A stretch of 19,746 bases of DNA from a virus (taxonomy: Duplodnaviria; Heunggongvirae; Uroviricota; Caudoviricetes). How positions within the stretch are numbered: position 1 is the first letter of the stretch; the number at the start of each line of letters is the position of its first letter. Positions 1 through 16,825 of this stretch are shown here, in pieces. The DNA lies in IMG/VR virus record IMGVR_UViG_2541047849_000002, one strand, 5' to 3'. The notes under the pieces were generated by a model. The model searched no databases and was not told the DNA's origin. It was given only the letters and a program-made list of their open reading frames with translations. Position numbers and translations under genes: made by a program.

Positions 1-1164
1 TTACGCCTTCTTTATATCCTCCATAATTCCAGAGTGGGACATATTTGGGACATTATCACCAAAAATGTCGTCTATTTTCCTCGCATGCTCTGTCAAATGA
101 TTAGGCGCAAGGTGAGCATACCTACGAACCATTTCTATGGACTCCCATCCGCCCATTTCCTGAAGCACTGATAATGGGACGCCTGACTGAATCAGCCAGC
201 TTGCCCAGGTGTGTCTGAGGTCATGGAAACGGAAATCTTCAATTCCTGCACGACGACAAGCTGATAGCCATGATGTCTTGCTGTCGATGCGCATCTTCCT
301 GACCGCAGGCGTTGATGTTCCATCTGCTCGCTTAGCCGCCTTGGTATGTACAAACACCCATTTGTGATGCTTGCCTATTTGATCACGCAACACTTTACAG
401 GCGGAATCGTTCAGCGCCACACCAATGGCGCGGTTTGATTTGCTCTCTTCTGGATTCACCCAGGCAACTCGTCGCTGCATGTCGATTTGTTGCCATTCCA
501 GATTTATGATGTTCGACTTTCTCAGACCAGTTGCCAGCGCAAACTTGACGACAGATTTCAGTGGTTCGGGGCACTCATCAATAAGGCGTTTTGCTTCCTC
601 CTTTTCCAGCCATCTGACTCGCTTGTTTCTGACCGCTGGTATCTTGATGACAGGCGCTTTTTCCAGCCACTTCCAGTCGCGTTCTGCAGCACGGAGAATG
701 GCCTTTATCATGGCAAGATGCTTTGCCTTTGTCTGAGTTGATACTGGCTTTGGTTCATAAACAGGCGGTTCTTTACCTTTCCTGATGGCGGCCTGAACTT
801 TCTGTTTCCATATTTCTTTCGTCTTTCTGTTATGCATTCTGCTTACAGCAGAGTAAATCTTTGCCTCCGAGATATCTTTAAGCCTTATACCCTCAAAATG
901 TTCAAGCCAGAACTCAATCCGGCTTTTATCTGAATCGAGAGATTTTTTATCAGCTTTTTCCTCAAGCCATCTTAGGCAGGCCTCTTCAAAAGTGACATCA
1001 GGTAAATCCCCTAGCTTTTCTACTCGCCAGAGTTCTGCTTTTCGCTTGTCGTGCAACTCCTGAGCTTGCCGCTTGTCCTTTGTGCCAAGAGATTCCTTAA
1101 TTCGTTTCCCGCCCGGGAGCGAATACGAGGCATACCATATTTCATTTCTGCGGAAGAGTGACAT
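1..1164 (-). CDS. intD: Phage tyrosine integrase (DLP12-type), 387 aa
   Basis: Complete minus-strand ORF, ATG at 1164-1162 and TAA at 3-1. C-terminal catalytic region [10 protein letters not shown] ... RRYAHL fits the tyrosine recombinase signature. Translation matches E. coli IntD as I recall it. Confidence 0.95.
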
Positions 1165-4113: not shown

Positions 4114-5640
4114 ATGAAAAAAGCCATAGCATATATGCGATTTTCATCACCAGGTCAGATGTCTGGCGACTCATTGAACCGACAGAGAAGACTTATTGCT
4201 GAATGGTTAAAGGTAAATAGTGATTATTATCTTGATACCATAACATATGAAGATTTAGGATTAAGTGCATTCAAAGGAAAGCATGCACAATCAGGAGCTT
4301 TTTCGGAATTTTTAGATGCTATAGAGCATGGTTATATATTGCCAGGAACTACATTGTTAGTTGAAAGTTTGGACAGACTTTCAAGAGAAAAAGTCGGTGA
4401 AGCGATTGAGCGTCTGAAATTGATTTTGAATCACGGTATTGATGTTATAACTCTTTGCGATAATACAGTCTATAATATTGACTCTTTGAATGATCCATAT
4501 TCATTAATAAAAGCCATACTTATAGCACAAAGGGCAAATGAAGAAAGCGAGATAAAGTCAAGTCGGGTTAAATTATCATGGAAGAAAAAACGGCAGGATG
4601 CACTGGAGTCAGGCACGATTATGACGGCGTCTTGTCCGAGATGGCTCTCATTGGATGACAAAAGAACAGCTTTTATTCCAGACCCCGACAGGGTGAAAAC
4701 GATTGAGCTAATTTTTAAACTCAGGATGGAAAGGCGATCATTGAATGCAATAGCCAAGTATTTAAATGATCATGCTGTAAAAAATTTCTCAGGCAAAGAA
4801 AGTGCATGGGGGCCTTCTGTAATTGAAAAATTATTAGCGAATAAAGCTCTGATAGGTATATGCGTACCTTCATATCGTGCAAGAGGTAAAGGAATAAGTG
4901 AAATCGCTGGCTATTATCCCAGAGTCATATCAGATGATTTGTTTTACGCTGTGCAGGAAATTCGGTTGGCACCTTTTGGTATTAGCAATAGTAGCAAAAA
5001 TCCTATGTTGATAAATCTACTTCGAACAGTTATGAAGTGCGAGGCTTGTGGTAATACCATGATTGTTCATGCGGTATCTGGAAGTTTGCATGGCTATTAT
5101 GTTTGTCCGATGAGAAGACTGCATCGATGTGACAGGCCATCAATAAAGAGAGATTTGGTTGATTATAATATCATTAATGAGTTGCTTTTTAATTGTAGTA
5201 AAATCCAACCAGTTGAAAACAAGAAAGATGCTAATGAAACTTTAGAGTTGAAAATTATTGAGCTCCAGATGAAAATTAATAATTTAATTGCTGCATTATC
5301 TGTTGCGCCTGAAGTTACCGCTATAGCAGAAAAAATCAGAGTATTAGATAAAGAATTACGAAGGGCTTCGGTATCATTAAAAACTTTGAAGAGTAAAGCG
5401 GTGAGTTCACTTGGTGATTTTCATGCTATTGACTTAACCAGTAAAAATGGGCGAGAGCTATGTCGTACACTTGCCTATAAAACATTCGAAAAAATCATAA
5501 TCAATACAGATAATAAAACCTGTGATATCTATTTTATGAATGGCATTGTTTTTAAACACTATCCTTTAATGAAAACAATATCCGCCCAGCAGGCGATAAG
5601 TACTCTCAAATATATGGTTGATGGTGAGGTTTATTTTTGA
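4114..5640 (+). CDS. ybcK: Large serine recombinase (YbcK type), 508 aa
   Basis: N-terminal resolvase-type catalytic domain (AIAYMRFSSPGQ ... LLVESLDRLSRE), a Cys-rich zinc-ribbon segment (CEACGNTMIVH...YYVCPMRRLHRCDRP) and a coiled-coil region. AGGTG Shine-Dalgarno. Visibly AT-rich coding sequence. Confidence 0.9.
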   Translation: MKKAIAYMRFSSPGQMSGDSLNRQRRLIAEWLKVNSDYYLDTITYEDLGLSAFKGKHAQSGAFSEFLDAIEHGYILPGTTLLVESLDRLSREKVGEAIERLKLILNHGIDVITLCDNTVYNIDSLNDPYSLIKAILIAQRANEESEIKSSRVKLSWKKKRQDALESGTIMTASCPRWLSLDDKRTAFIPDPDRVKTIELIFKLRMERRSLNAIAKYLNDHAVKNFSGKESAWGPSVIEKLLANKALIGICVPSYRARGKGISEIAGYYPRVISDDLFYAVQEIRLAPFGISNSSKNPMLINLLRTVMKCEACGNTMIVHAVSGSLHGYYVCPMRRLHRCDRPSIKRDLVDYNIINELLFNCSKIQPVENKKDANETLELKIIELQMKINNLIAALSVAPEVTAIAEKIRVLDKELRRASVSLKTLKSKAVSSLGDFHAIDLTSKNGRELCRTLAYKTFEKIIINTDNKTCDIYFMNGIVFKHYPLMKTISAQQAISTLKYMVDGEVYF

Positions 5641-5751
5641 GTAATAATCACTTTTCCAACCGTGCTATAGTAAGAAAGTTAGGTAAGTACAATAAAAGTA
5701 TCTATCCTGAACGAAGCGTCCTGAGCTATGGTTTTACTATAGGGACTGCCA

Positions 5752-6075
5752 ATGGATGCTGGCGTTCCCGTTCTAGCAGTTCAACAATTCCCAATCACAA
5801 AACAATTCACTGATAACGAACTTTGCACACTCGCCTGGTTATGGCGAGCAGGGAATGTGATGTTAATTGCCTACCAGAACGTTACTCATCTTCTTCAGGA
5901 TGCGGAGCATGGTGAGGCTGGTCACTTCACTTCCATCGAGCAAGAATATCCCCAGAGACTCAACAGAGCGCGAGCAATCCTCGCCCGAGAAACGGCACAT
6001 GTAAAACTTCAGCCGTGGCAGGATGATAAGTGGAGTCAAGTATTGCCGCATTTACCTCAGAATCTGTTTCAATAA
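5752..6075 (+). CDS. Hypothetical protein, 107 aa, no recognisable family
   Basis: ORF with ATG and a weak AGGGA Shine-Dalgarno. Base composition by eye is less AT-rich than the flanking ybcK and HNH genes. Could be a gene fragment. Confidence 0.3.
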   Translation: MDAGVPVLAVQQFPITKQFTDNELCTLAWLWRAGNVMLIAYQNVTHLLQDAEHGEAGHFTSIEQEYPQRLNRARAILARETAHVKLQPWQDDKWSQVLPHLPQNLFQ

Positions 6076-6093
6076 AGGCGCTAGTTAGTAAGG

Positions 6094-6119
6094 CTTCCGT
6101 CATTCTGCGATGACGGAAG
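6094..6119. other. Perfect 10-bp-stem hairpin (CTTCCGTCAT-tctgcg-ATGACGGAAG) with no U-tract
   Basis: Inverted repeat read directly, 19 nt downstream of the 107-aa ORF stop. May be a terminator, RNA stability element or recombination-site remnant. Confidence 0.3.
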
Positions 6120-6249
6120 TGCGGGCTGCGTACGGGAGAGCAATTGCATGAATAATATAAATATTCCGCTCACTCCATATAGCGATTTCTGATACAAACT
6201 TATCTATTGTGGTAAAATTATAGAAACAAACTTATAGCGTACTAACCAT

Positions 6250-7032
6250 ATGGACAATATTAATAAACACGGGCTCTCAAGAAGAATACCTGAGACAATA
6301 AAACGTCAGATAAGGCAAAGGTGCGGCTTTGGCTGTGTAATTTGTGGATTTGGATTTTATGATTATGAGCATTTTAAACCTGACTTCGTTGATGCCAAAA
6401 TACATGATCCGAATGGAATGACACTTCTTTGCTCCCAATGCAATCAAAAAAGAGCTCGTGGTAGACTTTCAGCACAGACAGTGGAAATAGCTGACAGAAA
6501 TCCCAAGTGCTTACAGGCTGGTTTTGCAAATGAAATGTTTGATTTTCATAATGAGCCTATAACAGTAAAATTTGCAGGAGTGACGTTTCATAACTGTCAA
6601 AATTTGATTGTAGTCAACGAACAACCCATTCTTTCTGTGAAACCTTCACCCATACCACATGGACCGATGCTTTTATCAGGAATTTTCTGTAATTCTATTG
6701 GTAAGGAGACTTTACTGATAGATGAAAATGAATGGAAAGCTAAATCAGACAATTGGGATGTGGAGTGTACCGGCCCGCGTATAACAATACGACGTGGGCC
6801 AGGAGAGTTTGCCCTCGTTCTAAAAATGGAACCTCCAACAGGATTGATTGTTGAGCGTCTTGATATGTTGTATGAAGGGGTCAGGATGAAAGGAGATAAA
6901 GATCTGCTGGAAGTTTCGATTAATGGAGGTCCCTTGCACAGATGGCAATCATGCTCAATGTCAAATTGCCATACAGGGCTTGCGATTCAGGGCGGTATTA
7001 GAGCTGCTAATGATCCTTTGTATTGCGCCTAA
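6250..7032 (+). CDS. HNH-nuclease-domain protein, 260 aa, with an uncharacterised ~185-aa C-terminal domain
   Basis: N-terminal CGFGCVICGF...YDYEHFKP...NGMTLLCSQCNQKRA fits the HNH motif (Cys pair, catalytic His, Asn, second Cys pair). The rest has no family I recognise. Possible extended -10 promoter (TGgTAAAAT) about 30 bp upstream. Confidence 0.6.
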   Translation: MDNINKHGLSRRIPETIKRQIRQRCGFGCVICGFGFYDYEHFKPDFVDAKIHDPNGMTLLCSQCNQKRARGRLSAQTVEIADRNPKCLQAGFANEMFDFHNEPITVKFAGVTFHNCQNLIVVNEQPILSVKPSPIPHGPMLLSGIFCNSIGKETLLIDENEWKAKSDNWDVECTGPRITIRRGPGEFALVLKMEPPTGLIVERLDMLYEGVRMKGDKDLLEVSINGGPLHRWQSCSMSNCHTGLAIQGGIRAANDPLYCA

Positions 7033-7074
7033 ATCCACTAAATTGATTTTCAACAATCAACTTGCCATAATTAA

Positions 7075-8714: not shown

Positions 8715-9098
8715 ATGCGTGATATTCAGATGGTTCTTGAGCGTTGGGGAGCGTGGGCGGCTAATAATCATGAAGATGTGACCTGGTCGTCCATTGCCGC
8801 CGGTTTTAAGGGATTAATTCCTTCAAAAGTAAAATCTCGCCCGCAATGTTGTGACGATGACGCGATGATCATTTGCGGGTGCATGGCCCGTCTGAAAAAG
8901 AACAACAGCGATTTGCACGATTTATTAGTAGATTATTATGTAGTCGGTATGACATTCATGTCACTGGCAGGTAAGCATTGCTGCTCTGATGGTTATATCG
9001 GGAAAAGGTTACAGAAGGCTGAGGGCATAATTGAAGGGATGTTAATGGCATTAGATATCCGGTTAGAGATGGATATCGTTGTTAATAACTCTAATTAA
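8715..9098 (+). CDS. quuD: Late-gene antiterminator Q homolog, 127 aa
   Basis: ATG at 8715 with GGAG Shine-Dalgarno. [24 protein letters not shown]... with a Cys-rich zinc-binding region; matches QuuD. Confidence 0.85.
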
Positions 9099-9131
9099 TA
9101 TGCCAATTGTTTACTAAAAATTATTAAAAAT

Positions 9132-9149
9132 GGGGCGTTGAGACGCCCC
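9132..9149 (-). terminator. Hairpin GGGGCG-ttgaga-CGCCCC with a U-tract on the minus strand; candidate nmpC terminator
   Basis: Perfect 6-bp stem; on the minus strand it is followed by ATTTTTAATAATTTTT. Lies about 140 nt downstream of the nmpC stop. Confidence 0.35.
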
Positions 9150-9241
9150 CAAAAATAAAGGGTAATATATAACAGAAGGTTTATATAGTTAGAAGCAAGG
9201 TTGTGCTTCTAAAGGAAGTGGCTTGAGGGAGCCACTTATAT

Positions 9242-9277
9242 GTTGGGGAGGCAAAGCCTCCCGCAACATATCTTTTT
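9242..9277 (+). terminator. Intrinsic terminator on the plus strand downstream of Q (tR-prime-like)
   Basis: GGGAGGC-aaa-GCCTCCC stem (extendable with one bulge) followed by ATATCTTTTTCG. Position relative to Q mirrors lambda pR-prime/6S RNA/tR-prime. Confidence 0.4.
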
Positions 9278-9287
9278 CGTAATCAGA

Positions 9288-10370
9288 TTAGAACTGATAC
9301 ACCAGACCTACAGCGACGATGTCGTCGGTATCAATACCAGCTGTTTTGGTAAACTTACTATCGTCAATTAAGTTGATTTTGTAATCAACAAAAGTGGACA
9401 TGTTTTTATTAAAGTAGTAAGTAGCACCGACATCGACATACTTGACTAAGTCTCGGTCACCATGAACACCAAGGTCTTTACCTTTTGACTGAAGGTAAGC
9501 AACAGATGGTCGCAGACCGAAGTCAAACTGATATTGTGCTACTGCTTCAAAGTTTTGTGCTTTGTTTGCAATATGGTTATTACCAAAAACGGTCATATTC
9601 TGAGTTTCAGAATATGTGGTAGCCAGATAGATATTGTTCGCATCATATTTCAGGCCTGCAGCCCATACTTCCGCATTTTTGCCGGAGGCATTGAATTTGC
9701 TCTTACCATAGGCGACCTGACCGTCAGTGCGATCTGATTTAGCATAGGTTGCACCCACGCCGAATCCTTCATACTCATAAGTAGTGGAGAAACCGAAACC
9801 ATCACCATTGGCTTCAGTTACGTCAGTGCGGTCATTTTTACCCTGATACTGAGCAGCAAAGTTCAGGCCATCGACCAGACCAAAGAAGTCGTTGTTACGA
9901 TAGGTTGCAACACCAGTGGTGCGACCAGTCATGAACACATCTGTTTGGGTCCAGGTATCGCCACCGAATTCTGGCAGAACGTCAGTCCACGCACCGATGT
10001 CGTATGCTACACCGTAGTTACGGCCGTAATCGATTGAGCCGTAGTCACCGAATTTCAGGCCTGCAAATGCAAGACGGGTTTTGTCTTTGGAGGAACCTTG
10101 AGATTCAGCGCGGTTGCCTTTGAATTCATATTCCCACTGACCGAAACCAGTCAGTTGATCGTTGATTTGGGTTTCACCTTTGAAGCCAAGACGGGCATAA
10201 GTAGTATCACCATCATCTGCATCGTTAGAGGAAAAGTAGTGCTTGGCATTAACTTTCCCGTACAGATCCAGCTTGTTACTGTCTTTATTATAAATTTCAG
10301 CTGCCTGAGCAGACATCGCCATCAGTACTGATGCAGCTACAGCAGAAATTGCCACTGTTAATTTTTTCAT
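9288..10370 (-). CDS. nmpC: Outer membrane general porin (NmpC/OmpD type), intact, 360 aa
   Basis: Signal peptide ending AQA, beta-barrel porin sequence throughout, C-terminal VYQF. AAGGG Shine-Dalgarno. Matches NmpC. Confidence 0.95.
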
Positions 10371-10958
10371 CGTGAGCCCTTTTTTTTGAACTATTATTAA
10401 AAAATGATGTCACTGCGCGATAAATATTCATCTAATCAATGTGATTATTTCAAGATGTAAGTTTTAGTTTCTCATTTAATTTGTGAAGTAGATCTCTATT
10501 TTTATCTGAACTTTTTCTATCGAAACCTATTTATGGCTCTTATTTGAACAAAAATAAACCTATTAGCTAATTTATATTAATGGCTGTTATTTATGGGGGT
10601 TCTATAATTCGGTGGTTTAATTTAAATCAACTAAAAATAACGCCGGAAATTATTTATTGGTTATTTGTTGAGGTTTTCTTATATATTTGTGGTGGTGTTT
10701 TGAACACTCGGTAGCATTCTCATAAATATCATTCAGTGGTTTACGTACGTAAAAAATTGGTTATGCTGTTAAGAGTGGTTACTTCGTCACACAGCTTAAA
10801 CCCGCCGTCGAGCTGGTTTTTCCATTTTTTGAGTCTCGATATTAGCTGATAACTCAATACCTGAGTTATTCACTGACTCCGAGTCTGTTACGTTTCTGCT
10901 TTTTTGCGATACGTTGTATTCCCTCAATTTACACCCGCTTTGTCTGCGAGGTGGGGTT

Positions 10959-11174
10959 ATGAAATCCATGGATAAGTTAACAACGGGTGTCGCCTATGGC
11001 ACCTCAGCAGGTAGTGCCGGTTACTGGTTTTTACAGCTGCTCGATAAAGTCACGCCCTCACAGTGGGCAGCAATAGGTGTGCTGGGTAGCCTGGTATTTG
11101 GCCTGCTGACGTACCTGACAAACCTTTATTTCAAGATTAAAGAAGATAAGCGCAAGGCTGCGAGAGGTGAATAA
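10959..11174 (+). CDS. essD: Class II holin (phage 21 S-type pinholin), 71 aa, with dual-start motif
   Basis: [25 protein letters not shown]... with two transmembrane segments and a charged C-terminus. GAGGTGGGG Shine-Dalgarno. Met1 and Met4 give the holin/antiholin dual start. Confidence 0.85.
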
Positions 11175-11671
11175 TGCCTCCATCATTACGAAAAGCCGTT
11201 GCTGCTGCTATTGGTGGCGGAGCAATTGCTATAGCATCAGTGTTAATCACTGGCCCAAGTGGTAACGATGGTCTGGAAGGTGTCAGCTACATACCATACA
11301 AAGATATTGTTGGTGTATGGACTGTATGTCACGGGCATACAGGAAAAGACATCATGCTCGGTAAAACGTATACCAAAGCAGAATGCAAAGCCCTCCTGAA
11401 TAAAGACCTTGCCACGGTCGCCAGACAAATTAACCCGTACATAAAAGTTGATATACCGGAAACAACGCGCGGCGCTCTTTACTCGTTCGTTTACAACGTG
11501 GGCGCTGGCAATTTCAGAACATCGACGCTTCTTCGCAAAATAAACCAGGGCGATATCAAAGGCGCATGTGATCAGCTACGTCGCTGGACATATGCTGGCG
11601 GTAAGCAATGGAAAGGTCTCATGACTCGTCGTGAGATTGAGCGTGAAATCTGTTTGTGGGGTCAGCAATGA
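11174..11671 (+). CDS. rrrD: SAR (signal-anchor-release) endolysin / lysozyme, 165 aa
   Basis: ATG overlaps the essD stop. N-terminal Gly/Ala-rich weakly hydrophobic segment ([18 protein letters not shown]) followed by a lysozyme fold; matches RrrD / R21. Confidence 0.95.
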
Positions 11672-12129
11672 ACAGAGTAACCGCGATTATCTCCGCTCTG
11701 GTTATCTGCATCATCGTCTGCCTGTCATGGGCTGTTAATCATTACCGTGATAACGCCATTACCTACAAAGCCCAGCGCGACAAAAATGCCAGAGAACTGA
11801 AGCTGGCGAACGCGGCAATTACTGACATGCAGATGCGCCAGCGTGATGTTGCTGCACTGGATGAAAAATACACGAAGGAGTTAGCTAATGCGAAAGCTGA
11901 AAATGATGCTCTGCGTGATGATGTTGCCGCTGGTCGTCGTCGGTTGCACATCAAAGCAGTCTGTCAGTCAGTGCGTGAAGCCACCACCGCCTCCGGCGTG
12001 GATAATGCAGCCTCCCCCCGACTGGCAGACACCGCTGAACGGGATTATTTCACCCTCAGAGAGAGGCTGATCACTATGCAAAAACAACTGGAAGGAACCC
12101 AGAAGTATATTAATGAGCAGTGCAGATAG
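11668..12129 (+). CDS. rzpD: Rz i-spanin, 153 aa
   Basis: ATGA overlap with rrrD. N-terminal transmembrane segment and coiled-coil periplasmic domain; matches RzpD. Confidence 0.9.
11888..12070 (+). CDS. rzoD: Rz1 o-spanin lipoprotein, 60 aa, embedded in the +1 frame of Rz
   Basis: [20 protein letters not shown] lipobox and a Pro-rich mature part ([15 protein letters not shown]). Entirely inside rzpD. Confidence 0.85.
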
Positions 12130-12160
12130 AGCTGCCCATATCGATGGGCAACTCATGCAA

Positions 12161-12454
12161 TTATTGTGAGCAATACACACGCGCTTCCAGCGGAGTATAA
12201 ATGCCTAAAGTAATAAAACCGAGCAATCCATTTACGAATGTTTGCTGGGTTTCTGTTTTAACAACATTTTCTGCGCCGCCACAAATTTTGGCTGCATCAA
12301 CAGTTTTCTCCTGTCCAATTCCCGAAACGAAGAAGTGATGGGTGATGGTTTCCTTTGGTGTTACTGCTGTCGGTTTGTTTCCAACAGTAAACGTCTGTTG
12401 AGCACATCCTGTAATAAGCATTGCCAGAGCGGCAGAAAACAACATTTTTTTCAT
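12161..12454 (-). CDS. borD: Bor-family outer membrane lipoprotein, 97 aa
   Basis: MKKMLFSAALAMLITGC lipoprotein signal with AGGA Shine-Dalgarno; matches Bor/BorD. Confidence 0.9.
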   Translation of the reverse strand: MKKMLFSAALAMLITGCAQQTFTVGNKPTAVTPKETITHHFFVSGIGQEKTVDAAKICGGAENVVKTETQQTFVNGLLGFITLGIYTPLEARVYCSQ

Positions 12455-12813
12455 CTTATTATCCTGCATTGTTAAAAACGGCAGAATCCTATGTGACAAC
12501 AATTAAACGATAGTTAAATGGATTGATGAAAATTAAAACTATATAGGTGGATGCTCAGCCTATTGGAGGAGGGGGGCACTCAGAATCCTGTGGAATGAAA
12601 TAAACCGCTCTTTCTGTCCATTACCCTTTTAGCTGCGCTGTATCGTCGCCGTATTCCCGCATTAACCATGACCGTAGCCCGACGGGGAATTCCTTCTGCG
12701 TGAGTGTGCGGGAATAATCAAAAACGATGCACACCGGGTTTTACTGTGCTGACAGACGCAGGGTTACCCTCATAGTCGCTTTTCCGGTGCGATGGTGGAA
12801 GAAACCGGGATGT

Positions 12814-13008
12814 TTATTCATCATCACTCTGGATTGATGTATATGCTCTCTTTTCTGACGTTAGTCTCCGACGGCAGGCTTCAATGACCCAGGCTGAGAA
12901 ATTCCCAGACCCTTTTTGCTCAAGAGCGATGTTAATTTGTTCAATCATTTGGTTAGGAAAGCGGATGTTGCGGGTTGTTGTTCTGCGGGTTCTGTTCTTA
13001 GTTGACAT
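12814..13008 (-). CDS. Small ribbon-helix-helix (Arc/Mnt-like) DNA-binding protein, 64 aa; possibly YlcI
   Basis: RNIRFPNQMIEQINIALEQKGSGNFSAWVIEACRRRL follows the Arc-type beta-strand plus two-helix pattern. Sits where lambda has small ORFs between bor and cos. Confidence 0.55.
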   Translation of the reverse strand: MSTKNRTRRTTTRNIRFPNQMIEQINIALEQKGSGNFSAWVIEACRRRLTSEKRAYTSIQSDDE

Positions 13009-13194
13009 GAGGTTGCCCCGTATTCAGTGTCGCTGATTTGTATTGTCTGAATTTGTTTTTACGTTAAGTTGATGCAGATCAATTAATACGATACCTGCGT
13101 CATAATTGATTATTTGACGTGGTTTGATGGCGTAGATGCACGTTGTGACATGTAGATGATAATTATTATCATTTTGCGGGTCCTTTCCGGCGAT

Positions 13195-13396
13195 CCGACA
13201 GGTTACGGGGCGGCGACCTCGCGGGTTTTCTCTATTTATGAAAATTTTCCGGTTTAAGGCATTTCCGTTCTTCTTCGTCGTAACTTAATGTTTTTATTTA
13301 AAATACCCCCTGAAAAGAAAGGAAACGACAGGTGCTGAAAACGAGCTTTTGGGCCTCTGTCGTTTCCTTTCTCTGTTTTTGGCCGTGGAATGAACA
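13195..13396 (+). other. Lambda-type cos site: right-end sequence, cosN 12-nt cohesive end GGGCGGCGACCT at 13208-13219, and cosB up to the Nu1 start
   Basis: ...GATCCGACAGGTTACG|GGGCGGCGACCT|CGCGGGTTTTC.CTATTTATGAAAATTTTCCGGTTTAAGGC... agrees almost base for base with the joined ends of the lambda genome as I recall them. Confidence 0.8.
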
Positions 13397-15823
13397 ATGG
13401 AAGTCAACAAAAAGCAGCTGGCTGACATTTTCGGTGCGAGTATCCGTACCATTCAGAACTGGCAGGAACAGGGAATGCCCGTTCTGCGAGGCGGTGGCAA
13501 GGGTAATGAGGTGCTTTATGACTCTGCCGCCGTTATAAGATGGTATGCCGAAAGGGATGCTGAAATTGAGAACGAAAAGCTGCGCCGGGAAGTTGAAGAA
13601 CTGCGGCAGGCCAGCGAGACAGATCTCCAGCCAGGGACTATTGAGTACGAACGCCATCGACTTACGCGTGCGCAGGCCGACGCACAGGAGCTGAAAAATG
13701 CCAGAGACTCCGCTGAAGTGGTGGAAACCGCATTCTGTACTTTCGTGCTGTCGCGGATCGCAGGTGAAATTGCCAGTATTCTCGACGGGATCCCCCTGTC
13801 GGTGCAGCGGCGTTTTCCGGAACTGGAAAACCGACATGTTGATTTCCTGAAACGGGATATCATCAAAGCCATGAACAAAGCAGCCGCGCTGGATGAACTG
13901 ATACCGGGGTTGCTGAGTGAATATAACAGCGCACAGGCGGCAGCGTCCTCGCAGACTGCATCGGCAAACTCCGCGACAGCAGCCAAAAAATCAGAAACCA
14001 ACGCGAAAAACAGCGAGACAGCCGCAAAGACGAGCGAAACCAACGCAAAGTCCAGCCAGACGGCAGCGAAAACCAGCGAAACGAATGCCAAAGCCAGTGA
14101 AACTGCGGCGAAAAATAGCCAGAATGCAGCAGCCGAAAGCGAGAGCGCGGCAGCCGGTTCTGCGACTGCAGCAGCTGGATCAGCAACTGCTGCGGCTAAC
14201 AGCCAGAAAGCAGCGAAGACGAGCGAAACTAACGCAAAGTCCAGCCAGACGGCAGCGAAGACCAGCGAAACAAATGCCAAAGCCAGCGAAACTGCGGCGA
14301 AAAGCAGTCAGGATGCAGCAGCCGAAAGCGAGAGTGCTGCAGCTGGTTCTGCAAGTGCGGCGGCTGCTTCTGCCACTGCATCAGCAAACAGTCAAAAAGC
14401 TGCAAAAACCAGTGAAACCAATGCAAAGACAAGCGAGACTGCAGCGGCGAACTCGGCGCAAGCATCGGCAGCAAGCCAGACAGCAGCTAAAGCAAGTGAG
14501 GATGCAGCCAGAGAGTATGCAAGCCAGGCAGCAGAGCCGTATAAATATGTCTTACAGCCACTGCCTGATGTGTGGATACCGTTTAACGATTCACTGGATA
14601 TGCTTGCTGGCTTTTCGCCTGGTTATAAGCAAATAACCGTAGGTGATGATGTTATTAAAATGCCATCCGATAAGGTTGTTAGCTTCAAACGCGCATCAGG
14701 TGCAACATACATTAATAAATCAGGTGTATTAACCGTTGCTGAAGTTGACGAACCGCGATTTGAACGAGAAGGTTTGCTGATTGAAGGACAGAGAACAAAC
14801 TATTTCAGAAATTCAAATACACCAGAAGCATGGAATAACACGGGTAGTGTGTCTGTTGAGTCGTTCGACAGTGATAAGGGGTTTAACTATGGAAGGATAA
14901 CTGTTATCAATGAAAATCCGACAGCACAAGGATATCAGGCAATTGCTGTAAACACGAATGATGCTTACACCTGCCCGGCAGGTTCTTATACGACGATATC
15001 GTGTCTGACGAAAAGTGATAATTCCCGGTGTCGTGCAAGGTTCGGAAAAATGTCTGATAATGGTGCGTTTGTTTTTCATTCAGATGCAGTTCTGGATCCT
15101 GTTACGGGAAATGTTGTTCATGGAAATAATGTGACGGTGACGGCAGAAAGAGTCGGTGAATGGTGGTTGTTTACCGCCACTCTTTTTGCAGATGCGGAAA
15201 TGATAATCAGCTCAAGATTTGAAATCCTGGCGATGCCTGGAATCAGTATTATCCCCAATGGCTCTACGTTAGATATTGCGATGCCTCAGGCGGAGATTGG
15301 GTCGTACAGGACGTCATTTATCATTACTGAAGGGGCTCCTGGCACTCGCTCCAGCGACATGGTGACAATACCTGTAAGAAACAATATTCACCGATTACCA
15401 TTCAGTGCTCTTGTTGAAGTTAATAAAAACTGGGATATCCCTCCCAGCAAATCACCATTAATCTTTAATGTTAAAGATTATCAGGAAAATGGTCTGTTCA
15501 CGCATGGATTCCGTGGTAATAATTTCTCTGATGCCGGTTCTCCTTTTATTTCTATGGGAGGGTGTAATAAATATGTGGCAACAACCCAGAGGAAAATCAT
15601 TTCAGGCTTCCGTTGTGGCGCTGATGGAGATGTTCAGGCCGTATGTAATGGTGAATTATCTGTTGCGGCAAAAACAACATGGACTTCAATTGTTCCACGG
15701 GCAGTATTGCGAATTGGAGGGCAGGGCACTAATGGGGAGTATCATCTTTTTGGTCATATCCGTAATCTGCGTATCTGGCATAAAGAATTAACTGATGCGC
15801 AAATGGGGGAGAGTATTAAATGA
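13397..15823 (+). CDS. Chimeric ORF, 808 aa: terminase small subunit Nu1 (residues 1-176) fused in frame to the shaft and C-terminal receptor-binding part of a side tail fibre
   Basis: Residues 1-176 (MEVNKKQLADIFGASIRTIQNWQEQGMPVLRGG...PGLLSEY) match lambda Nu1, which continues IEQSG-stop. Here the frame continues into Ala/Ser/Thr-rich SETNAK repeats and a C-terminal jelly-roll-like domain (...GEYHLFGHIRNLRIWHKELTDAQM). Junction at about 13922-13927. Confidence 0.8.
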   Translation: MEVNKKQLADIFGASIRTIQNWQEQGMPVLRGGGKGNEVLYDSAAVIRWYAERDAEIENEKLRREVEELRQASETDLQPGTIEYERHRLTRAQADAQELKNARDSAEVVETAFCTFVLSRIAGEIASILDGIPLSVQRRFPELENRHVDFLKRDIIKAMNKAAALDELIPGLLSEYNSAQAAASSQTASANSATAAKKSETNAKNSETAAKTSETNAKSSQTAAKTSETNAKASETAAKNSQNAAAESESAAAGSATAAAGSATAAANSQKAAKTSETNAKSSQTAAKTSETNAKASETAAKSSQDAAAESESAAAGSASAAAASATASANSQKAAKTSETNAKTSETAAANSAQASAASQTAAKASEDAAREYASQAAEPYKYVLQPLPDVWIPFNDSLDMLAGFSPGYKQITVGDDVIKMPSDKVVSFKRASGATYINKSGVLTVAEVDEPRFEREGLLIEGQRTNYFRNSNTPEAWNNTGSVSVESFDSDKGFNYGRITVINENPTAQGYQAIAVNTNDAYTCPAGSYTTISCLTKSDNSRCRARFGKMSDNGAFVFHSDAVLDPVTGNVVHGNNVTVTAERVGEWWLFTATLFADAEMIISSRFEILAMPGISIIPNGSTLDIAMPQAEIGSYRTSFIITEGAPGTRSSDMVTIPVRNNIHRLPFSALVEVNKNWDIPPSKSPLIFNVKDYQENGLFTHGFRGNNFSDAGSPFISMGGCNKYVATTQRKIISGFRCGADGDVQAVCNGELSVAAKTTWTSIVPRAVLRIGGQGTNGEYHLFGHIRNLRIWHKELTDAQMGESIK
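14030..14407 (+). repeat. Tandem duplication of a 189-bp (63-codon) unit within the tail-fibre shaft, with partial related units on both sides (about 13975-14480)
   Basis: Unit 1 at 14030-14218 and unit 2 at 14219-14407 are near-identical (TSETNAKSSQTAAKTSETNAKASETAAK...ANSQKAAK). Confidence 0.85.
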
Positions 15824-16101
15824 AAGATTTAACACTCAAATTTGCAGACAGGGCCGACTTTTCGGCCTTTATGGAGAGTATTGGCTATTATGATGACGAG
15901 TCGATGCAGGATGATATTCTTATTGACGTGATAGGTAACGTGTACAAAGAAACCGGAGAACTGACTGAAGATGGCGAACCGGTATGTGTTAAGGAAGACG
16001 GATATTTTGTAAACGTGCGCATCATTAATGATGTAAAAAAATCGTCAATATTCGATAAATACGCGGTTGTTGTTGAGCATCAACTTCGTGGCTGGATGTG
16101 A
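15820..16101 (+). CDS. Small acidic hypothetical protein, 93 aa, translationally coupled to the tail-fibre ORF
   Basis: ATGA start/stop overlap with the upstream ORF. About 20 Asp/Glu against about 10 Lys/Arg. No family recognised. Confidence 0.5.
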   Translation: MKDLTLKFADRADFSAFMESIGYYDDESMQDDILIDVIGNVYKETGELTEDGEPVCVKEDGYFVNVRIINDVKKSSIFDKYAVVVEHQLRGWM

Positions 16102-16110
16102 GGGAGACAA

Positions 16111-16815
16111 ATGGCTACATCGACAGTAATTCCAGGAGATATCACCACGCTAAAGGGAGATGTCAGTAAAACTAAGGAAGATATTTCCTCAATTAACGGA
16201 AAAGTATCAACGCTTCAGACTGGTATGACCAGTGCAAAGCAGGATATCAGCACCAGATACACAAAAACTGAAGTTGATAATAAGCTGAAAAACAAACTGG
16301 AAGTGAACGATCTGGAAAGCGGTCGTTATGGTGGAGATTTTTACCCGTTGACTGGCCGTGAAGCGTTTTATATGTGGGGATTGGGCACGACTACAGCGGC
16401 GGCAAACCTTTATCTTAATCCTGACCCTGCAATTTCGTCTGTACTGCGGTCAACATCGTCTATTCGCTATAAACATTCAGTAGAGACGATAGATTCAGAG
16501 CACGCCGATCTCATTTTCAGGATGCGCCCTGTGTGGTACAGGTCGCAATGCGAAAATGACAGGCGTGACTGGGGATTCTACGGATTGATTGCCGAGGAAG
16601 TAGGAGAAATTGCCCCTCAGTTTGTACACTGGCGACCAGCTAACGAAGATGATGCTCCTGAAGCTATTTCCAGCAATGGCCTTGTTGCCGAAGGTGTAAT
16701 GTACGAACGTCTGGTTGTTCCACTGATTCACCATATCCAGAAGCTGACTGAAAGAGTTGATGAACTTGAGTCAGAATTAAAGTTGTTATCCGTTTCCCGA
16801 AGCGATATCGGATAA
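16111..16815 (+). CDS. Tail-fibre-like protein, 234 aa: coiled N-terminal segment plus C-terminal intramolecular-chaperone (peptidase S74-type) domain
   Basis: GAGGGAGA Shine-Dalgarno. The C-terminal half (SSIRYKHSVETIDSEHADLIFRMRPVWYR...WGFYGLIAEEVGEIAPQFVHW...LVVPLIHHIQKLTERVDELESEL) follows the pattern of the self-cleaving chaperone domain of endosialidase/tail fibres, with Ser and Lys five residues apart. Confidence 0.55.
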   Translation: MATSTVIPGDITTLKGDVSKTKEDISSINGKVSTLQTGMTSAKQDISTRYTKTEVDNKLKNKLEVNDLESGRYGGDFYPLTGREAFYMWGLGTTTAAANLYLNPDPAISSVLRSTSSIRYKHSVETIDSEHADLIFRMRPVWYRSQCENDRRDWGFYGLIAEEVGEIAPQFVHWRPANEDDAPEAISSNGLVAEGVMYERLVVPLIHHIQKLTERVDELESELKLLSVSRSDIG

Positions 16816-16825
16816 AGGAGGAGTA

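Follow-up and report, generated by a model that had tools for sequence, protein, structure and literature searches.

The 19,746-nucleotide (nt) virus sequence IMGVR_UViG_2541047849_000002 from IMG/VR, hereafter called the window in its full length, is identified by sequence comparison as a decaying lambdoid cryptic prophage of Escherichia coli of the DLP12 type. An open reading frame (ORF) on its forward strand (13397-15823) encodes 808 amino acids (aa), in which residues 1-176 of a lambda-type terminase small subunit, Nu1 (gene nu1, here nohD), are joined in frame to the side tail fibre protein Stf from about residue 153. The fusion is a new allele of a known kind, belonging with the DLP12 decay alleles and the microhomology deletion scars. 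Very probably, it is an ordinary scar of prophage decay left by a deletion at a TA or ATA microhomology, and its ORF is a functionless by-product. The region of the fusion contains the following features:

13208-13219, forward strand: cosN cohesive-end sequence GGGCGGCGACCT, read directly from the sequence
13397-13925, forward strand: part derived from nu1 (nohD), Nu1 residues 1-176, recognized by Pfam, PDB and colinearity with intact nohD
13900-13903, forward strand: GATA at the end of nu1 codon 169, the main deletion endpoint elsewhere in E. coli prophages and the left end of a loss of 22 base pairs (bp) in a sister allele
13917-13925, forward strand: remnant of gene A, three codons (V N I) beginning with its GTG start; the equivalent position starts an annotated A fragment in locus L002
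13924-13925: junction, TA common to both parents, from comparison of native nu1 and native stf
13926-15823, forward strand: part derived from stf, beginning at about Stf residue 153 and ending with the natural stop, recognized by PHROG 1419 and intact Stf proteins P0002 and P0003
13975-14527, forward strand: Ala/Ser/Thr-rich shaft repeats with periods of 21, 42 and 189 nt, from Tandem Repeats Finder and the translation
14777-15352, forward strand: distal fibre domain ("phage head spike fiber domain" of NCBIfam), residues 461-652 (NF048003, E-value 3.7e-18)
15820-17119, forward strand: three small genes of 93, 234 and 97 aa (PHROGs 1361, 3299 and 1443)

Alignment to native nu1 and stf placed the breakpoint at 13925/13926. 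The window is the same as intact nohD up to 13925 (...GAGTGAATATA), where intact nohD continues with TCGAACAG, and the same as intact stf from 13926 onwards (ACAGCGCACAGG...). Two references with intact nohD, L002 and L217, are colinear with the window as far as 13925. At the break, native nu1 reads ...GAATATA^TCG. Native stf has two forms there, ...GCAGCTA^ACAGCG, present in over 100 IMG/VR loci, and ...GCGGATA^ACAGCG in a second allele; with GCGGATA as the parental form, the shared bases would be ATA (13923-13925) rather than TA. Native Nu1 coding ends with codon 176 (TAT, Y), and the change begins with codon 177 (13925-13927, AAC). A preliminary description of the window had recognized a near-complete Nu1 (176 of 181 residues) switching at codon 177, at about 13925, and these values proved exact in the base-level comparison.

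The undeleted state is found in strain 442/2, which carries at its DLP12 locus an apparently complete DLP12-type prophage with all head and tail genes (L217, NZ_CP076282.1 575334-618334). Its early, Q, nmpC, lysis, iss and ylcI genes are the same as in the window, and its late genes follow in the order nohD-A-W-B-C-D-E-FI-FII-Z-U-V-G-T-H-M-L-K-I-J-lom-stf. This prophage is, in addition, a useful reference for DLP12 before deletion. The equivalents of the two breakpoints in it, the end of the left flank at 21029 and the right site at 40871, lie about 19.8 kilobases (kb) apart. In the window, nu1 is short of its final 5 codons and stf of its first ~152, and everything from A through lom is gone. 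The flanks are colinear and co-oriented with the undeleted relative, no foreign insert is present and a short sequence is shared at the join, as expected of illegitimate recombination. The comparison thus bears out the earlier view of an in-frame deletion scar that fuses nu1 to stf in a prophage whose morphogenesis region is gone.

We infer that illegitimate recombination at a microhomology of 2-3 nt (TA or ATA) connected codon 176 of nu1 with stf at about codon 153. Lost in such an event would be ~19.8 kb, from the 3' end of nu1 through A, every head and tail gene and lom to the 5' end of stf. The join would have fallen in frame by chance, giving the single ORF Nu1(1-176)::Stf(153-end). A random deletion has a prior chance of 1 in 3 of such an outcome, and once the frame is kept both halves are in their own native frames, so that the length of the open frame adds no improbability. 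One deletion event is the most economical reading, though unprovable.

In the nu1-derived half, the Pfam family Phage_Nu1 (PF07471) matches ORF residues 1-164 over its full 164-position profile (E-value 3.7e-100), and PHROG 57 (terminase small subunit) matches residues 1-183. Solved fragments of gpNu1 correspond to residues 1-98 (6hn7, E-value 6e-57) and 1-68 (1j9i, E-value 7e-38). PF07471, 1j9i and 6hn7 together identify the N-terminal winged helix-turn-helix DNA-binding domain of Nu1. The complete 181-aa protein is not present, as its native C-terminal IEQSG is replaced by fibre sequence, with loss of 5 codons and the stop. In lambda terminase, the native C-terminus of Nu1 is the region that contacts gpA. 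The overlapping downstream gene for the large subunit is likewise absent, A being reduced to the remnant listed above. Upstream, cosN is present and cosB lies between it and nu1, leaving an intact packaging site. The spacing from cosN to the nu1 ATG is 189 nt, the same as in lambda. Compared with lambda gpNu1, the fusion thus retains the N-terminal winged helix, most of the protein and an intact cos upstream, but differs in the replaced last 5 residues, in the lack of an adjacent gene A and in the 632 fibre residues appended.

Two further observations concern this half. The N-terminus of Nu1 (window 13397-13561, residues 1-55) matches the PADLOC model "mad1" with an E-value of 1e-10, which probably reflects shared helix-turn-helix similarity between the sequences. 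The GTG of gene A now opens an out-of-frame ORF of 239 aa, rich in Arg, Gln and Pro, that runs across the fibre repeats (13917-14636).

The junction peptide reads ...LLSEYNSAQAAASSQ..., and from there on the protein is Stf. ORF residues 177-807 correspond to positions 150-793 of the 793 in PHROG 1419 (tail protein, E-value 2.9e-276), and intact Stf proteins, 782-845 aa long, align to 78% of the query with 97-98% identity. These intact relatives have the N-terminal tail-attachment domain PF08400, for which no match exists in the 808-aa ORF, while the Stf shaft and the distal domain are both present. The trio of genes for 93, 234 and 97 aa that follows the fusion is also found 3' of intact stf in L014-L016, so that these accessory genes are as in intact phages, and the 234-aa product has an S74 chaperone-type domain (Pfam PF13884). 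Genes for a tail that could receive the fibre (J and others) are lacking, no head or tail gene being left between nu1 and stf. If made, the product would therefore keep the DNA-binding domain of Nu1, with no large subunit, no attachment domain and no tail or virion to act with. The ORF is taken as a by-product because the large subunit, the virion and the fibre attachment domain are all missing.

In two complete genomes (WP4-S18-ESBL-08 and EC6563), a sister allele is 99.9% identical to the window over 9000-19746 (10.7 kb), with about a dozen differences. It has the same right breakpoint but is 22 bp shorter at the join, which is thereby out of frame: 22 bp of authentic nu1 (CCGGGGTTGCTGAGTGAATATA) are deleted, moving the left end to codon 169. 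The gene after the fusion ORF carries a further frameshift, and the fusion is annotated by the Prokaryotic Genome Annotation Pipeline (PGAP) as two pseudogene fragments. Since the 22 bp are native nu1 sequence, the window form is the older one and the frameshifted sister is derived from it. The frame is thus not kept among relatives, as it would be in a functional fusion. A search of 5,426 complete genomes did not find the exact in-frame join. A scan for consensus promoters gave nothing above chance, with 7 promoter-like sites against 10.3 expected from shuffling. There is no sign of selection for the chimera. The preliminary description had also suggested that the chimera might bind DNA or be targeted to the envelope, which finds no support here, given the missing attachment domain of Stf and the lost frame of the sister allele.

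DLP12 exists in several deletion forms, and loss of packaging and structural genes with retention of tail-fibre genes has been described for incomplete prophages in published surveys (PMC7744054). In the common DLP12 allele, nohD is intact and gpA codon 62 is joined to stf at about codon 476; in K-12, DLP12 has nohD and an A fragment joined to a tfa fragment. Both alleles resemble the window in their locus, in flanks that are 99.6-99.8% identical and in the deletion of the morphogenesis region from terminase to fibre. They differ from it in left ends that lie within A, leaving nohD complete (181 aa), in their right ends and in the lack of any Nu1-fibre fusion.

The closest analogue is nohA-stfQ of the Qin prophage of E. 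coli K-12, which is broken at the same left nucleotide, after nu1 codon 176 (...GAGTGAATATA^). Like the window, it has lost the morphogenesis region and continues on the right into a truncated gene for a side tail fibre. The Qin break, however, lies much further into stf, its fibre remainder is in the frame of gene A, and Nu1 ends after 189 aa. The 320-aa fibre ORF of Qin (L003, K-12 MG1655, 5072-6037) begins with VNI, the GTG start of A and its next two codons, followed by T from an ACC that spans the join. Another related form is a fusion of the tape-measure protein to Stf (P0093, 976 aa, 14 contigs), in which the fibre starts in frame from the same nucleotide as in the window (TA^ACAGCGCACAGG). 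Its left partner is the tape-measure gene at about codon 338, and it resides in a different defective prophage, next to the bio genes.

The fusion had previously been described as an odd chimera, but it is not a singleton: in E. coli, Nu1 is commonly found fused to pieces of many different phage genes. Dozens of such fusions were returned when native Nu1 was used as the query, their tails being parts of lom, U, E, B, FI, tfa, J and even integrase. Among protein breakpoints between codons 144 and 181, 39 of ~65 clusters diverge at residue 169, and 48 do so when two adjacent positions are included, with about 20 different tails; this survey covers breakpoints from about codon 144 onwards, but neither earlier ones nor those inside gene A. 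At the DNA level, 20 right-hand sequences, representing 19 sites (the stf site at about codon 153 occurs in two alleles), start exactly after GAACTGATA (window 13903). Locus L215 and the SARKVNGK fibre site add two more, so that at least 21 right-hand partners are joined to nu1 codon 169. The hot spot reads GAACTGATA^CCGGGG and was examined in loci L001, L004, L005, L149-L179, L198-L210 and L215.

All 10 of the 10 partners checked for orientation are direct (rightward), and the joins are therefore deletions; in the library that yielded ten rightward junctions, no leftward junction ending at the codon 169 site was present. The prophages concerned are not one clone, because their upstream regions are only 93-97% identical. 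The same endpoint (query ends 1007-1009) with different partners was also observed in a spread sample of complete genomes. TA stands at the join for all 17 partners with known native context, against 3.3% of positions in an intact relative, and among TA sites the use of GATA exceeds expectation about 3.4-fold. From about codon 155 to where gene A starts, codon 169 has the only TA. Three joins are not at TA but at ACA, TG and TGG, the last being a second deletion of the window itself (1656-1658).

Several sites recur in different joins. Two right partners are found with both left ends, 176 and 169, namely the stf site at about codon 153 (window and L001) and the Qin partner (K-12 and L204); trimming by 22 bp has therefore happened more than once. 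The stf site of the window (13924-13931) is joined to nu1 codon 169 in L001 (at 15105), to the tape-measure gene in P0093 and in L009-L012 (at ~9016), and to codon 3 of gene L in L145 (at 9937). A gpA site, a lom site and a fibre site are each used in two or three different joins.

Joins in the late region are mostly at TA, often as GGATA or GGGTA with G-rich sequence after it, and several sites are reused as left or right partner. The portal gene (native gpB, L162 and L163) contains GATGCTGATAG, closely similar to GATGAACTGATAC of nu1. One Nu1::portal fusion (L214, ~1990-2010) appears to have formed at the portal GATGCTGATAG and to have then lost 3 nt.

The hot spot for Nu1 fusions beside the scar is striking. 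Resection by RecBCD limited by Chi was rejected as the cause of its fixed left end, as no Chi, even with one mismatch, lies near 13903. DNA secondary structure near the nu1 3' terminus, such as a hairpin, was rejected as well, the DNA folding no better than shuffled sequences (z -0.56). Resemblance to the left half of cosN (GGTTA^CGGGG) was suggestive for the R2 site, the gpA site and nu1 codon 169, but the cuts are misaligned and most sites are unlike it. A by-eye comparison with pseudo-sites of serine and tyrosine recombinases, ends of insertion sequences (IS), restriction sites and HUH nick sites gave no convincing match and no dyad around the TA. A recombinase acting at a palindromic TA core is made less likely by the joins, all of which are deletions and none inversions. 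Strong columns of a position-specific motif appeared in a first count, but aligned sites left only a pattern of G-rich, (A)TA, G-rich. A universal TA rule was discarded on account of the three joins at other bases. Searches for junctions in other nu1 allele families gave one chance match in a scan of species-representative genomes and nothing in the first genome scan. No described nu1 deletion hot spot was found in the literature searched, which is not proof of absence. Two readings are left. There may be a site-specific nick or break at GATA^CC, with the left end protected and the right end resected, or there may be a TA-preferring joining process together with selection to keep cos and most of Nu1.

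These data raise the possibility that the join of the window is the output of a directed or strongly biased process acting on lambdoid prophages, in which a cut in the 3' end of nu1, at the beginning of A or a little ahead of it, is followed by rightward deletion. The codon 176 join would then be an early product, later trimmed to 169, and such an origin is compatible with a functionless scar. The clustering of Nu1 divergence at or near residue 169, the variety of right-hand sites at one left nucleotide, their uniform orientation and the constancy of TA all favour it, as do the two partners with both left ends and the reuse of the stf site with the tape-measure gene and gene L. Nevertheless, we consider it possible but on balance unlikely. 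No enzyme or structure was identified, the choice of right partner tracks microhomology to GATA as in ordinary illegitimate recombination, and some junctions are not at TA. Furthermore, a scarcity of TA combined with a TA-preferring mechanism and selection for cos and most of Nu1 could give the same picture, and the protein survey has the limited reach stated above.

Another possibility is that the join did not arise from one deletion at this locus. Successive deletions could have overwritten earlier joins, or a join made in a different lambdoid prophage could have been transferred to this locus by homologous recombination across the flanking nu1 and stf sequences. E. coli genomes have a median of 2 and up to 8 copies of nu1, and lambda exchanges its nu1 and stf regions with DLP12, Qin and Rac (PMC3945230). 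Two-step histories are seen at other loci (L145; L199 and L177), and the commonest DLP12 allele and that of the window, in spite of their nearly identical flanks, cannot be derived from each other by deletion alone. On the other hand, one event suffices for a single join whose flanks are colinear with an intact prophage at the same locus, and no trace of an intermediate remains. We therefore regard a history of several steps or of transfer as unlikely.

Some observations weigh against a simple account of functionless, random decay. The ORF is intact and identical in three assemblies. Its fibre half is nearly identical to alleles of intact phages, the C-terminal 427 codons differing from those of L020 and L022 by one synonymous change. 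The substitutions are too few to show relaxed selection, and the ratio of nonsynonymous to synonymous rates (dN/dS) is uninformative on this half because there are too few differences. There is, moreover, a single functional precedent for a Stf chimera of a cryptic prophage, the anti-phage protein StfE2 of e14. It is produced by PinQ through reversible site-specific inversion between fibre gene segments and was shown experimentally to block T2 adsorption (PMC12529663). Breakpoints at the 3' end of nu1 are also far from random, so that random decay gives an incomplete account of how the join arose.

By analogy with StfE2, the chimera might be a domesticated protein, acting either as a packaging decoy that binds cosB through the winged helix of Nu1 or as a fibre tip that blocks a receptor. 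The intact frame in the three assemblies, the intact cos and DNA-binding domain, the ability of DLP12 nu1 to function in lambda (PMC3945230) and the enrichment of tail-fibre genes in incomplete prophages (PMC7744054) are in line with this, as is the StfE2 precedent. Both proteins are chimeric tail-fibre proteins encoded by E. coli cryptic prophages, but StfE2 involves a reversible inversion and has an experimentally demonstrated function, whereas here the deletion is irreversible, the partner is a terminase and the evidence is that of sequence. In the nearest allele the frame is gone while hardly anything else differs, none of the complete genomes searched has the exact join, and the tails of other Nu1 fusions are arbitrary and often out of frame. 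No tail-fibre defence model was matched, the sole PADLOC match being the helix-turn-helix at the N-terminus of Nu1, and no export signal turned up, although no search aimed at such signals was made. Domestication is for these reasons very improbable.

The join itself is almost certainly no artefact of sequencing or assembly, one of the possibilities that had been named as fatal to the fusion: repeats such as those of the fibre half may mislead assemblers, but the join lies ~50 nt outside them, the identical 808-aa ORF is held by three independent assemblies (GCA_000459575.1 and two Logan assemblies of other runs, SRR958539 and ERR439668), and two finished genomes share the right-hand breakpoint. 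In NCBI, the exact protein is named "terminase small subunit [Escherichia coli KOEGE 7 (16a)]". The window very probably comes from that strain or from one closely related to it.

The identity of the prophage and its gene order were established by BLAST against complete E. coli genomes and from their annotation. The window is 97-99.9% identical to, and colinear with, annotated DLP12 loci and has the DLP12 gene order at that chromosomal locus. Apart from the features listed above, its genes are arranged as follows:

1-1164, reverse strand: intD
after intD: remnants of replication genes, ren and emrE
4114-5640: ybcK
after ybcK: ybcN-ninE-ybcO-rusA-ylcG-quuD
5752-6075: ORF similar to an anti-repressor C-terminus, PHROG 7640
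6250-7032: ORF of PHROG 6544 (function not assigned), with faint HNH similarity
9288-10370, reverse strand: nmpC/ompC
after nmpC/ompC: lysis genes essD-rrrD-rzpD
between the lysis genes and cos, reverse strand: iss/bor and ylcI
right part of the window: cos, followed by the fusion ORF, the three small fibre-associated genes, a tfa remnant, appY and ompT

Other changes are seen in the rest of the window. Relative to the prophage of strain 442/2, the second deletion at 1656-1658 has removed ~7.3 kb of early genes, with a join at the TGG microhomology; the loss covers exo, bet, gam, the repressor region and part of the replication genes. In place of ybcL-ybcM of other DLP12 alleles, the window has a stretch (5650-7042) with two ORFs, 5752-6075 and 6250-7032, neither of which matched any defence model. 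The appY gene (17795-18544) has an in-frame stop at codon 24 (17864-17866) and is probably, judging from its reading frame, a pseudogene in this strain, while the copy of the sister allele is intact.

Taken alone, the fusion matters little, being one more allele of a decaying prophage whose closest relative is already without the frame. It is nevertheless a clean and datable example, as the undeleted allele, the in-frame scar and a frameshifted derivative are all found at one locus. The part worth following is the hot spot, where left ends cluster on a single nucleotide of nu1 with more than 20 partners. Tentatively, and with considerable doubt, the disarming of lambda-type prophages in E. coli could be seen as non-random: a polar, site-preferring process would run from nu1 codon 169 (GAACTGATA^), or less often codon 176, rightward to a TA site and leave behind cos and a clipped Nu1. 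The join in the window would be a first-step product of this process and the sister allele its trimmed end state. Its cause could be a site-specific nick or break made by a nuclease, whether of the host or of a phage; alternatively, a clipped Nu1 could be selected for because it hinders the packaging of incoming phages. If true, such a break, or such selection for a shortened small terminase, would bear on how prophages are disarmed while their cos, lysis and fibre genes are kept.

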